From Labilithrix sp. (GTDB lineage Bacteria; Myxococcota_A; Polyangia; Polyangiales; Polyangiaceae), in contig JAHBWE010000017.1 of NCBI GenBank assembly GCA_019637155.1, positions 64,001 to 128,000 on the forward strand: 64,000 bases of DNA, given 5' to 3'. Positions 24,452-43,320 of the stretch are shown here, piece after piece; position 1 is the stretch's first letter; every line of letters begins with the position of its first letter. The notes under the pieces are model-generated. The model had not been told where the DNA came from. It saw only the letters and a program-made list of their open reading frames with translations, and searched no databases. Made by a program: the position numbers and the translations under genes.

Positions 24452-24453
24452 GT

Positions 24454-25016
24454 CTCTTCATGGTCGGGGGCTCTGCCCCCGACACCCCCGCCCCGCGACC
24501 ACGGCCCTCTCTTCATGGTCGGGGGCTCTGCCCCCGACACCCCCGCCCCGCGACCACGGCCCTCGCGCTTTCGCGCTCGGGTTGCTTCGCAACCGCTGGG
24601 GCGGCCGCGGTCGCGGGGCCCCCGCTTCCCCCGCTGCGTCGCGCACGGACGTCGCTGCGCTCGGGGCGCTTCGCAACCGCTGGGGCGGCCGCGGTCGCGG
24701 GGCCCCCGCTTTCCCCGCTGCGTCGCGCCCGACCCTCGCACTCACGCGAAGGCCCCAGAAGCGATCTCGCCGCCGCATCGCGCACGGCCGTCACGCTCGC
24801 CTGCGCATGCGAGCGCCAAATCCGGCCCCATGAGCGCGGCGATTGGCAGCGGCCCCCAGCAGCGGGCCCGCTCGCATGGCCCTCACGCTCACCCGCGGCG
24901 CGCGCGAGGGGCCCCAGAAGCGGCCGCGCAAGCGGGCGCGCAGCGCCCCGAGCGCGAAGCGCGAGGGTCGTGTCTGGGGTGGGGGTGTCGGGGGCGAAGC
25001 CCCCGACGTTGAGTAA
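24454..25016. mobile_element. foldback/MITE-like non-coding element with roughly 42-bp terminal inverted repeats (left terminal repeat duplicated in tandem)
   Basis: The left end is tctcttcatggtcgggggctctgcccccgacacccccgccccgcgaccacggccc, present twice in tandem. The right end ggggtgggggtgtcgggggcgaagcccccgacgttgagtaa is its inverted complement. The 9-bp palindrome gtcgggggc-NNN-gcccccgac sits in every copy. The interior holds two further 60-bp direct repeats (gcttcgcaaccgctggggcggccgcggtcgcggggccccc). There is no protein-like ORF. Confidence 0.5.
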
Positions 25017-26878: not shown

Positions 26879-28042
26879 ATGAACGGAGAAGAAGCCGTCT
26901 ACGAGATGCTCTGGGACTGCAAGTACTGCGGTCAGAAGAAGCTCCTCGGCGTCACGCATCGCTTCTGCGCCGGCTGCGGCGCGCCGCAGGATCCGAACGC
27001 GCGCTACTTCCCGCCCGACCACGAGAAGGTCGCGGTCAAGAACCACCCGTACGTCGGCGCCGACGTGGTGTGCCCGTCGTGCCGGCAGCCGATGTCCCGC
27101 GCCGCCAAGTGCTGCACGAACTGCGGCGGCCCCATCGACAAGGGCGCCGAGGTCGCGCGCCAAGCCGACGTCGTCGTCCCCCCACCCGGCGGCTATCCGC
27201 CGGGTGCCTATCCGGCCGGTGCTCACGCACCCGGCGCTCACGCACCCGGTGCCTATCCGCCCGGTGCTCACGCACCCGGTGCCTATCCTCACGGCGCCTA
27301 TCCGCCCGGTGCTCACGCACCCGGCGCCTATCCGCAGCAGCCCTTCAGGAGCGCGGCGCAGGGCTTCCAGCCCGCACCGCCGAAGAAGAGCAGCGCGGGA
27401 CTGATCCTCGGCATCGTCGGCGGCGTCTTCGCGCTACTCCTCGTGCTCGTCCTAGTCGCGGTCTTCTGGAAGCGTGAGGCCGCGCTCGCGGTGACGGGCC
27501 ATTCGTGGGAGCGGAGCATCCGGATCGAGCGCTTCGAGAACGTCCGCAAGAGCACGTGGTGCGACGAGATCCCGGCCGGCGCGCGCGTCGTCTCACGCCG
27601 CCGCGAGCAACGTGGCACGAAGAGGGAGAAGGACGGCCAGACCTGCTCGACGCGCAAGAAGGACCTGGGCAACGGCTCGTACAAGGAGGTGAGGGAGTGC
27701 ACCGACAAGTACAAGGAGACTCCCGTTTACGACGACAAATGCGATATCGACGTAACGGAGTGGCGCACCGCCCGCACCGCGACCGAGAAGGGCGCGAGCG
27801 TCAGCGACACCCCACGCTGGCCCGTAACGAAGGTGACGGGAGGCACGTGCCTCGGCTGCGAGCGCGAAGGCTCGAAGACCGAGAAGTACACAGTCCTCTT
27901 CACCGACGCCAAGTCGAAGGACGCCGCCTCATGCGACCTCCCACAAGCAAAATGGTCCACCTTCAAGGTCGGCTCGAAGTGGAAAGGCCAAGTCCGCGTC
28001 ATGACCGGCGGCGTCGACTGCAACGACCTCATCGCGCAGTAG
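26879..28042 (+). CDS. membrane-anchored protein with N-terminal double zinc ribbon and a Pro-rich decapeptide repeat region
   Basis: ATG at 26879 (MNGEEAVYEMLWDCKYCGQ...). Four CxxC pairs: CKYCG, CAGCG, CPSCR, CTNCG. Roughly five repeats of PGAYPPGAHA. One TM helix (AGLILGIVGGVFALLLVLVLVAVFW). Cys-containing extracytoplasmic C-terminal domain. Confidence 0.65.
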   Translation: MNGEEAVYEMLWDCKYCGQKKLLGVTHRFCAGCGAPQDPNARYFPPDHEKVAVKNHPYVGADVVCPSCRQPMSRAAKCCTNCGGPIDKGAEVARQADVVVPPPGGYPPGAYPAGAHAPGAHAPGAYPPGAHAPGAYPHGAYPPGAHAPGAYPQQPFRSAAQGFQPAPPKKSSAGLILGIVGGVFALLLVLVLVAVFWKREAALAVTGHSWERSIRIERFENVRKSTWCDEIPAGARVVSRRREQRGTKREKDGQTCSTRKKDLGNGSYKEVRECTDKYKETPVYDDKCDIDVTEWRTARTATEKGASVSDTPRWPVTKVTGGTCLGCEREGSKTEKYTVLFTDAKSKDAASCDLPQAKWSTFKVGSKWKGQVRVMTGGVDCNDLIAQ

Positions 28043-28045
28043 CGG

Positions 28046-28600
28046 CCCCGCTCGCGCAACGCCCGACACGCCGAAGCTCGCGCCCGCGAGCGAGAATTGC
28101 ACAACCTCGGTTGTGCATCTCGTTTCGCAACCCAGGTTGTACAACAGCTCCAACTCGCGCGACGCTCGACACACCAACAGCTCGCTCCGGCGAGCGAGAA
28201 CTGTACAACCTCGGTTGCGCACCCCAACTCCACAACCCAGTTGTGCAACGACCCCGCTCGCGCAACGCTCGACACGCCGAAGCTCGCGCTCGCAAGCGAG
28301 GACTGCACAACCTCGGTTGCGCACCCAACTCCACAACCCAGGTTGTGCAACGACTCCAGCGCGCGCAACGCCCGACACGCCGAAAGCTCACGCCCGTAAG
28401 CGAGGACTGCACATCCTCGGTTGCGCATCCCAATTCACCCCCAGGTTGTGCAACGACTCCAGCACGCGCACCCCCCGACGCACCGAAGCTCGTGCCCACG
28501 AGCGGATTGCACAACCTCGGTTGCGCATATCGATTACACAACCTGGGTTGTACAAACGCCCGAGGAGCACGGCATTCGGAGACTCACGATCGCGAGCAGG
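28046..28600. repeat. tandem array of 5 units of about 105 bp, each with two palindromes (tgcacaacc-tcgg-ttgtgca and acaaccc-agg-ttgt-like)
   Basis: The units begin near 28046, 28150, 28258, 28363 and 28468. Identity is roughly 80-85%. The conserved head of each unit is cgcgcaacgcccgacacgccgaagctcgcgc. Nothing unique separates the copies. No ORF is supported. Confidence 0.7.
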
Positions 28601-28786
28601 CGCCCTCCTCGCCGCTCGGCGCGGCGGAGCCCGGAGTCTAGCGACCCCGCTTCACGTTCGCCGTCTTCGCCGCGACCTTCGCCATCGCCGCACCCTTCGC
28701 CGGAGACGCGACCTTCGCCATCGCCGTCACCGCACCCTTCGCCTTCGCCGCGACCGTCGCCTTCGCCACGCCCTTCGGCTTCGCCG

Positions 28787-29311
28787 TCACCGCGACCTTC
28801 GCGGCGCCGCGACCTTCGGCTTCGCCGGCGCCGCGCCCTTCGCCGGTGCTGCACTCTTCGCCGCGACCTTCGCTGGCGTCGCGACCTTCGATTTCGCCGC
28901 GACCCTCCCCTTCGCCACGCCCTTCCCCTTCCCCTTCGCCGAGCCCTTCCCCCTCGCCGCGACCTTCGCCTTCGCCGCGACCTTCCCCTTCGCCGTGACC
29001 TTCGATACGAGGGTGTATGCGTCCTCGAGGAGGGCCCTCATCACCGTCGCCGTGACCTTTGCGAGGTGGGCGTAGGTCCAGCCGCTGCGGCCCCAGGCGC
29101 CGGCGGCGGGGGCGAATTGGCCGGCGAAAGACTCGTCGTCGATGAGCGTCAGCTGGAGCTCGAGGGGGAGCTTGAAGGACGCCTTCGTCTCGTCCTCGGT
29201 CAGGCTTGCGAAGATCTTCCCGCCCACGCGGAAGTCCGCGTGGCCCATGTGCGAACCCTCCTCCGTGTTCGGGAGCGAGAGGGCCAGCTTGCGGAACTGG
29301 GCGGCGTTCAT
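28787..29311 (-). CDS. YjbR/MmcQ-family protein fused to a histone-H1-like Lys/Ala/Pro-rich C-terminal tail
   Basis: ATG at 29311 with GAGGG 5 nt upstream. The N-terminal 100 aa (MNAAQFRKLALSLPNTEEGSHMGHADFRVGGKIFASL...) match the YjbR fold family. The C-terminal 70 aa are AKxK / PAKxxA repeats. Seven nt separate it from the upstream gene. Confidence 0.7.
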   Translation of the reverse strand: MNAAQFRKLALSLPNTEEGSHMGHADFRVGGKIFASLTEDETKASFKLPLELQLTLIDDESFAGQFAPAAGAWGRSGWTYAHLAKVTATVMRALLEDAYTLVSKVTAKGKVAAKAKVAARGKGSAKGKGKGVAKGRVAAKSKVATPAKVAAKSAAPAKGAAPAKPKVAAPRRSR

Positions 29312-42539: not shown

Positions 42540-43320
42540 ACGCAGCCAGCCGCCGGCGACGATGCTGGGTTGGCCGTGATGCTGGGGTGGGCCGGGCTGG
42601 CTGGGTTGTGGACTCGGCTCGCGATGGACGCGGCCGCTGGGGCTGGTTGTGGGCCGCTGGGGGCTGGGTTGTGGACTCGGCGATGGAGCCGTACCTGGGA
42701 CGCGGCCGCGATGCGTAGCGGAACGGCAGATCCTCGCGACGCCGCATACCGAAGACATCACAGCGAACTGGAGAGTCGTGCGCGCTAAGAAAAACGCACG
42801 CAGACACCGCATCGCACACAGACGCGCCGCGCACGCAGACCCCACGTCACGTTTCGCACACGCAGACACCGCCACGAGACGTCGCGCCGCGCACGCAGGC
42901 GCCGCGTCGCAGGCGCAGTCCGCAGACGCGTCGCGCACGCCGCCACGCACACAGACGTCGCGCCGCGCACGCAGCCGCCGCGTCGCGCACGCAGACCGCG
43001 CCCGCAAGACGCCACGCACGCATCTGCCGCGTCGCGCTCGCAGACGTCTGCCGCGTCGCGCTCGCAGACGTCTGCCGCGTCGCGCTCGCAGACGTCTGCC
43101 GCGTCGCGCTCGCACGCGTTGCCGCGCGCCGTGCTCGCACGCGTCTACCGCGTCGCGCACGCAGGCGTCTGCCGCGTCGCGTTCGCACGCAGCTGCCGCG
43201 CCGACCGGGGCCCCAGAAGCGGCCGCGAAAGCGGGCGCGAAGCGCCCCGGCGTCTTCGCCGGGCCGTGTCTGGGGCGGGGGTGTCGGGGGCGGAGCCCCC
43301 GACGTTGGGTAAGAGACCCC
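42540..43320. repeat. repeat-rich intergenic block
   Basis: Short direct repeats gctgggttgtggactcgg are present twice. The 24-bp tandem cgcagacgtctgccgcgtcgcgct occurs four times at roughly 43029..43124. A partial copy of the 24454..25016 element sits at 43207..43312. Confidence 0.6.

Follow-up and report, generated by a model that had tools for sequence, protein, structure and literature searches.

Locus and architecture of the array

Within the 64-kb stretch of DNA analysed here (the window), five head-to-tail units of 103 bp form a non-coding array at 28046-28560. It lies between a plus-strand gene for a double-zinc-ribbon protein with a single transmembrane segment (26879-28042), whose stop codon falls 4 bp before the array, and a convergent minus-strand gene (28787-29311) that encodes a YjbR domain (Pfam, 2.2e-11) with an Ala/Lys-rich tail; about 80-230 bp separate the end of the array from the 3′ end of the YjbR gene. 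Pfam agrees with the preliminary description on both flanking genes and recognizes, among the neighbours, GSDH, cytochrome c, zinc ribbon, YjbR, cNMP-binding and TerC families. The upstream zinc-ribbon protein is identical to NCBI entries MBX3232093.1 and MCW5813270.1 (KIT84_19740) from a Labilithrix sp. MAG of high GC content.

Tandem Repeats Finder reports the repeat at 28050-28528 with a period of 103, 4.7 copies, 82% matches and a score of 604, and a repeat search recovers five copies at successive spacings of 103, 103, 103 and 103. In register, the units occupy 28046-28148, 28149-28251, 28252-28354, 28355-28457 and 28458-28560, with a mean column identity of 86% in their alignment and pairwise identities of 68-86%. 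The count of five tandem units thus stands as first described, but the period is 103 rather than roughly 105 bp, and the array ends near 28556-28560 instead of at 28600. It is non-coding: 103 is no multiple of three, and every ORF across the array fails a coding-composition filter. A head-to-tail non-coding unit of this size falls within the 10-100+ bp typical of bacterial minisatellites (VNTRs). Because the whole unit repeats, with divergence throughout and no unique spacers, the array is not CRISPR, as had been recognized from the start; Pfam finds no cas genes among the neighbouring genes, and the CRISPR-DR28 model reaches 15.9 bits against a gathering score of 35.

Each unit runs from a variable head through a hairpin (H1), a palindrome (H2) and a short variable linker to a second palindrome (H3). 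Three palindromic elements per unit are therefore found where two had been counted, the third being the GC-rich H1, of the general form GCTCGC-N4-GCGAGC. The head, CGCGCAACGCCCGACACGCCGAA at 28053-28075 in unit 1, is the most variable long segment of the unit and has three copies within 3 mismatches, none of them outside the array in the window. The version of the head described as common to all units, cgcgcaacgcccgacacgccgaa..., matches units 1 and 4 exactly and unit 3 with a single mismatch; units 2 and 5 have drifted further from it. H1 reads GCTCGC-GCCC-GCGAGC in unit 1 (28076-28091) and recurs at 28180-28195, 28282-28297, 28386-28401 and 28488-28503. H2 and H3 are the AT-richer palindromes of the unit, TGCACAACC-NN-GGTTGYGCA, with TGCACAACC-tc-GGTTGYGCA as the H2 consensus and the related CACAACC-ca-GGTTGTRCA as that of H3. 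Their centres lie about 26 bp apart (25-27 bp) within a unit, and successive H2 centres are separated by 100-104 bp, about ten helical turns. The core ACAACCNNGGTTG, searched on both strands with at most one mismatch, occurs 15 times, always within the array, against 0.33 occurrences expected from shuffles.

Surrounding repeats and the closest relative

Intergenic repeats, tandem as well as dispersed, abound in this genome generally, and both flanking genes contain repeats too. In the zinc-ribbon gene, a 15/45-bp coding repeat at 27183-27335 encodes a (PGAYP/PGAHA)n linker, and the protein measures 387 aa against about 330-360 aa in most homologues. The Ala/Lys tail of the YjbR protein is built by an 18-bp coding repeat of about 18 copies (28665-29004, minus strand); the YjbR frame stops at 28787, and a 50-aa ORF at 28638-28790 carries the AKA-type sequence on in another frame, a break that reflects either a real truncation or an assembly frameshift.

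Further away, a distinct element of about 105 bp, GGCCCCAGAAGCGGCCGCG.AAGCGGGCGCG…GTGTCTGGGG.GGGGGTGTCGGGGGCG.AGCCCCCGACGTTG.GTAA, lies in two separate intergenic regions (24905-25015 and 43203-43310; also 24453-24564). An inverted copy of its hairpin core, GTCGGGGGC…GCCCCCGAC, sits within a perfect tandem duplication of 55 bp (two copies). The element bears no relation to the 103-bp unit and has the look of a REP/MITE-like family dispersed in this genome. Other intergenic tandem repeats at 42823-43200 and 24573-24776 comprise a 24/48-bp unit (CGTCGCGCTCGCACGCAGCTGCCG-like) in 5-10 copies and an 84-bp unit in 2.2 copies, each adjoining a copy of the dispersed element.

The closest relative found (L012) has a zinc-ribbon protein 74% identical to that of the present locus, flanking DNA about 75-88% identical and the same gene order (zinc-ribbon → YjbR ← cNMP-binding), with the two convergent genes overlapping. 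The array is absent there, 75 bp corresponding to 1013 bp here, which makes it lineage-specific; the array and the long 18-bp-repeat YjbR tail are additions, or differential retentions, in this lineage. A presence that differs between related genomes is again what is seen with VNTRs, here on the strength of one relative. The L012 YjbR protein is 122 aa long and has a short basic tail only. More distant relatives (L002 and L003) have another downstream gene and no repeats, and the sequence of L013 ends 34 bp after the gene.

The array palindromes match a SnoaL-MarR promoter palindrome

A search of the 64-kb window for further copies of the head, H1 and the palindromes found none outside the array. 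The 20-mer that varies least, TGYACAACCTCGGTTGYGCA, was sought in genomes of 185,579 species, one per species, and in the JGI metagenome contigs, collections that are without this organism's own genome. It occurs at 5 places in the species genomes and 3 in the JGI contigs, always in single copy, and the scan revealed no array anywhere in either collection. Most matches are chance occurrences in coding DNA. Those in Planctomycetota/Phycisphaerales are TPR coding sequence (…YNLGCAY…), that in Rhodoferax falls at the C-terminal end of a gene for arginine decarboxylase, and the three metagenome matches lie in coding or low-GC DNA. In the two Planctomycetota MAGs (L005 451-470 and L007 787-806), the 20-mer lies inside TPR-repeat genes and encodes the TPR motif YNLGCA, a source of chance matches in any search with this palindrome. 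As 102 bp make 34 codons, a decayed TPR gene was considered as the origin of the unit, and was rejected on a period of 103, a frame that is not kept and a translation that is un-TPR-like outside the palindrome. Viral contigs, plasmids and phages gave short chance matches or nothing; one IMG/VR viral contig (L020 5624-5659) has a 36-bp near-perfect palindrome, ATTGCCTATGTACAACCTAGGTTGTGCATAGGCAAT, that contains the same core motif.

Two matches are intergenic, both in Myxococcota. In the MAG STL-MYX26 (L008 4281-4302), one perfect palindrome, ATGCACAACCTCGGTTGTGCAT, separates two convergent genes; there is no MarR gene within 8 kb of it, and it is thus an orphan site placed much as the array is. 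In an Archangium MAG (L004), a SnoaL-like gene and a MarR-family gene diverge from a gap of 70 bp that contains the 20-mer, the palindrome there being doubled as ATGCACAACCacGGTTGCACAACCtcGGTTGTGCAT. The Archangium MarR protein has homologues that are common in Myxococcota and extend to actinomycetes, and we examined six further loci, from Hyalangium gracile, Stigmatella aurantiaca, a Myxococcales MAG, a Polyangiaceae MAG, a Kofleriaceae MAG and the actinobacterium Saccharothrix (with Archangium, loci L004 and L014, L015, L016, L017, L018 and L019). The divergent SnoaL-MarR pair is present in five of the six, the Kofleriaceae contig beginning just upstream of the MarR gene, and all six have the palindrome in one or two copies in the short upstream region, bringing the genomes that share it to seven.

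The promoter palindrome has the consensus TTGCACAACC-NN-GGTTGTGCAA, 20-22 bp long, with conserved arms and a free central dinucleotide (ac, tc, aa, gt, tt, at, ta or ct). The sites are often paired, either through a shared half-site (14-bp offset) or 30 bp apart, and a conserved GCAAGA-like stretch, identified by eye, follows the palindrome. Conserved arms around a free centre are the classic footprint of a dimeric winged-helix repressor site, as judged from sequence, and from this phylogenetic footprint we infer that the promoter palindrome is probably the operator of the MarR protein. The SnoaL-linked MarR subfamily has no close solved structure, its best PDB match having an E-value of about 7e-4. 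A literature search on the motif string, the SnoaL-linked MarR operator and Labilithrix repeats returned nothing relevant.

We built a half-site weight matrix from 13 promoter sites, which themselves score 23.8-36.0 bits. With it, eight of the ten palindromes in the array reach 22.1-36.0 bits, and the maximum outside the array in the 64-kb window is 5.3 bits. All five H2 copies are intact: TTGCACAACCtcGGTTGTGCAT in unit 1 (28097-28118, 36.0 bits), a perfect operator-type site whose 20-mer is identical to the Archangium MarR promoter site, CTGTACAACCtcGGTTGCGCAC in unit 2 (28201-28222, 24.0 bits), CTGCACAACCtcGGTTGCGCAC in unit 3 (28303-28324, 23.8 bits), CTGCACATCCtcGGTTGCGCAT in unit 4 (28407-28428, 22.1 bits) and TTGCACAACCtcGGTTGCGCAT in unit 5 (28507-28528, 32.4 bits). 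H3 is intact in unit 1 (TTTCGCAACCcaGGTTGTACAA, 28123-28144, 31.4 bits), unit 3 (CTCCACAACCcaGGTTGTGCAA, 28329-28350, 28.2 bits) and unit 5 (TTACACAACCtgGGTTGTACAA, 28534-28555, 35.5 bits). The other two have decayed: H3 of unit 2 (CACAACCCA-GTTGTGCAA, 28227-28248, 3.3 bits) has a central 1-nt deletion, visible as a gap in the unit alignment, and that of unit 4 (28432-28453, 5.2 bits) has lost its 5′ half-site (TTCACCCCC) and keeps the 3′ half intact. Eight intact and two decayed operator-type sites, judged against TTGCACAACC-NN-GGTTGTGCAA, are thus packed into 460 bp. Each MarR locus confines its sites of 23 bits or more to the SnoaL-MarR intergenic region, and the zinc-ribbon loci of the relatives have no strong sites.

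In sequence, then, the array palindromes are the same as the candidate operator of the SnoaL-linked MarR genes, and the early suggestion of a binding array for a TTGTGCAA-type regulator has gained real comparative support. The likeness is confined to the palindromes, and the units are without the GCAAGA-like stretch that follows the putative operator in promoters, which argues that the unit is not a copied promoter. Its setting also differs from that of a regulator's promoter: convergent genes flank the array with their 3′ ends, no sigma-70-like promoter was found in the region, the 64-kb window encodes no MarR homologue, and the named homologues of the SnoaL-linked MarR protein include no Labilithrix orthologue.

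Constraint on the palindromes

Of 90 cells at informative positions of H2, 3 differ from the unit consensus, compared with 43 of 295 cells in columns outside the sites (Fisher p = 0.0026); for H3 the figure is 9 of 90, which is not significant. These statistics are weak, since they come from five units only, related by descent. In a crude neutral simulation on a star phylogeny at the non-site divergence, with a site counted as kept if above 22 bits, at least eight of ten sites were kept in about 0.03% of runs (1% at a 10% rate), a result that is indicative only, because the threshold was set after seeing the data and the units are not independent.

These numbers bear on the possibility that the array is a neutral minisatellite, produced when replication slippage or unequal recombination, which palindromes favour, multiplied a stretch that by chance had operator-like palindromes, and now drifting towards decay and free of binding, or of consequential binding, in vivo. 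We regard this as less likely than a binding array but as a serious rival to it, and a good deal speaks for it. The array is absent from the L012 junction, where the genes overlap, and tandem repeats abound both at the locus, with the 15/45-bp and 18-bp repeats in the flanking coding sequences, and in the genome, with the intergenic repeats at 24453-24776 and 42823-43200. Moreover, identity between units has fallen to 68-86%, two palindromes out of ten are broken, the 64-kb window encodes no cognate regulator, and no Labilithrix orthologue is among the named homologues. Against neutrality, preservation of the palindromes, H2 above all, far exceeds that of the remaining unit sequence, and eight sites still score at full operator strength. 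Neutral amplification also leaves unexplained why each unit should hold two copies of a 32-bit motif. The conservation of H2 could, for its part, stem from hairpin-templated correction or gene conversion.

Pairing changes and RNA-level readings

The three palindromic elements differ in how they have changed. H1 shows two compensatory double changes in its five copies, G-C to A-T in unit 4 and C-G to T-A in unit 5, and is 100% paired when read on the minus strand, which indicates that its pairing has been held and its sequence left free; it behaves as a structural hairpin, or as a quasi-palindrome kept perfect by templated repair. In H2 and H3, no pair has changed on both sides, which points to the sequence itself being held, and both behave like sequence-specific sites. 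A nested long hairpin, in which the 5′ arm of H2 pairs with the 3′ arm of H3, was also considered; it pairs as well as the separate hairpins and shows no covariation, and was set aside.

A role at the RNA level would have the array transcribed as the 3′ UTR of one or both convergent genes, where the three stem-loops of each unit would block 3′ exonucleases or stop read-through as a bidirectional terminator or insulator. The preliminary description had raised a multi-hairpin transcriptional insulator; such an insulator, terminator or 3′-UTR hairpin role is possible, specific support for it is lacking, and we consider it improbable as an account of the array. Single units fold well below their shuffles, above all on the minus strand (-52, -60 and -49 kcal/mol, z -3.6 to -5.5), but units 2 and 4 fold no better than shuffles on that strand (z -0.4 and -0.15), and since any DNA palindrome folds as RNA, these fold energies are not independent evidence. 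Pairing is higher on the minus strand than on the plus strand (95.9% vs 89.9%) because several A-C mismatches become G-U pairs, yet the G/T richness of the minus strand may be a matter of local composition, as it runs on into the neighbouring coding repeat. The two compensatory changes in H1 favour an RNA hairpin, whereas H2 and H3 are without such changes and match in sequence a promoter motif found across phyla. H2 of unit 1 is followed by the T-rich TCTCGTTTCG, the sole terminator-like match in the region, but this count is at the level of chance (1 found vs 1.4 expected) and the other hairpins are without T-runs. The single L008 palindrome, also between convergent genes, would fit an RNA-level role. 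Rfam 15 has no match in the whole window at gathering score, and at a permissive E-value the region returns chance-level miRNA, snoRNA and CRISPR-DR matches only (E >1).

Discussion

By combining the anatomy of the array with a comparison of promoters across seven genomes, we arrive at a tentative reading, to which we give a little less than an even chance: the array may be a lineage-specific intergenic minisatellite that multiplies candidate MarR operator-type sites and serves as a decoy or a roadblock. Amplification would have turned one 103-bp unit into five in the space that separates the converging genes, and dimers of a MarR-type repressor would occupy the sites of the array. Given that there is no promoter at the array, such occupancy could not repress initiation. 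The array might sequester the repressor, so that the repressor's real targets would be induced at a shifted and sharper threshold (a decoy or "sponge"); alternatively or in addition, bound protein, with the hairpins in support, could block the way between the two transcription units that converge here (a roadblock). That the regulator is present in the genome, binds the array and does so with a selected effect is something that we infer only.

Several points weigh against a binding array. The cognate MarR protein may be absent from the genome; convergent 3′ ends are not where operators act; and the conservation of H3 does not significantly exceed that of the remaining unit sequence, two H3 copies having decayed. 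As the array is missing from L012, any function that it has must be young and dispensable. A bolder and improbable version would make the array a naturally evolved, ligand-tunable transcription-factor sponge of eight tandem high-affinity sites, phased at about ten helical turns, combined with a roadblock, in which the number of units acts as an evolvable dial of the induction threshold.

The closest parallel at the level of the individual site comes from MarR proteins that act at divergent promoters, as with Streptomyces SCO3205, for which two pseudopalindromes of roughly 22 bp lie in a divergent promoter (PMC3737563). The array shares with such operators a palindrome of 20-22 bp, conserved arms, a free centre and paired sites; it differs in having no promoter, no nearby regulator or SnoaL gene, ten tandem sites in place of one or two, and a position at gene 3′ ends. 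At the level of the whole array, decoy sites for transcription factors are known, both natural and as synthetic "DNA sponges" (PMC8599769, PMC7686491). Like these, the array would be a cluster of high-affinity sites that controls no promoter and could, by a putative titration, lower the level of free regulator. Decoy sites reshape the dose-response of transcription factors, and are built deliberately as DNA sponges in synthetic biology. Examples of titration include the E. coli datA locus, for DnaA, and the "inc" arrays of plasmid iterons. The natural decoys known in bacteria are for the most part single sites scattered over the genome, or else they serve replication initiators, and we know of no described natural bacterial tandem-array decoy for an ordinary small-molecule-responsive repressor.

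Other tandem and palindromic repeats offer partial likenesses. Mycobacterial MIRUs, a VNTR family at many loci with repeats of roughly 50-100 bp, are likewise head-to-tail, intergenic, lineage-specific and, as is likely here, variable in copy number; in contrast, the present unit is found at one locus only and carries recognizable regulator-site palindromes. The sopC centromere of F consists of tandem repeats, each with a palindromic protein-binding site, an architecture of direct repeats and palindromes that the array shares. It differs from sopC in its chromosomal context: the neighbouring genes include no par (parA/parB) or rep genes by Pfam, and there is no plasmid similarity, results that tell equally against a partition centromere or an iteron array.

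REP, BIME and REPIN elements resemble the array in being imperfect palindromes, located between convergent genes and able to combine by pairing into one longer hairpin. The label of a satellite or REP-like array holds for its first half, the array being tandem and satellite-like; its second half, which implies dispersal over the genome, gains no support from the 64-kb window, with no further copies, or from the public scans, with 8 single matches in all. That REP/BIME- or MITE-like mobile palindromes were inserted repeatedly at this junction and dispersed elsewhere is very improbable: paired complementary imperfect palindromes that could form one long REPIN-like hairpin, the convergent-gene location and the existence of another dispersed palindromic element in the genome are in its favour, but no part of the unit recurs in the 64 kb, the core 20-mer is nearly absent from the 185,579 species genomes and the metagenome contigs, no plasmid, phage or viral contig matches, and the strict 103-bp register points to tandem duplication and not to independent insertions.

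For the favoured reading, a minisatellite that may multiply repressor-binding sites, the consequences depend on whether the sites are in fact bound. If they are not, the array is an ordinary young minisatellite. If they are, it would offer a compact natural test case for control by titration or roadblock, and for the tuning of such control by the copy number of a minisatellite. Independent of the array, the comparison yields in TTGCACAACC-NN-GGTTGTGCAA a concrete operator candidate for an uncharacterised SnoaL-paired MarR subfamily that is, by the homologues and the putative promoter sites compared here, conserved from Myxococcota to actinomycetes.
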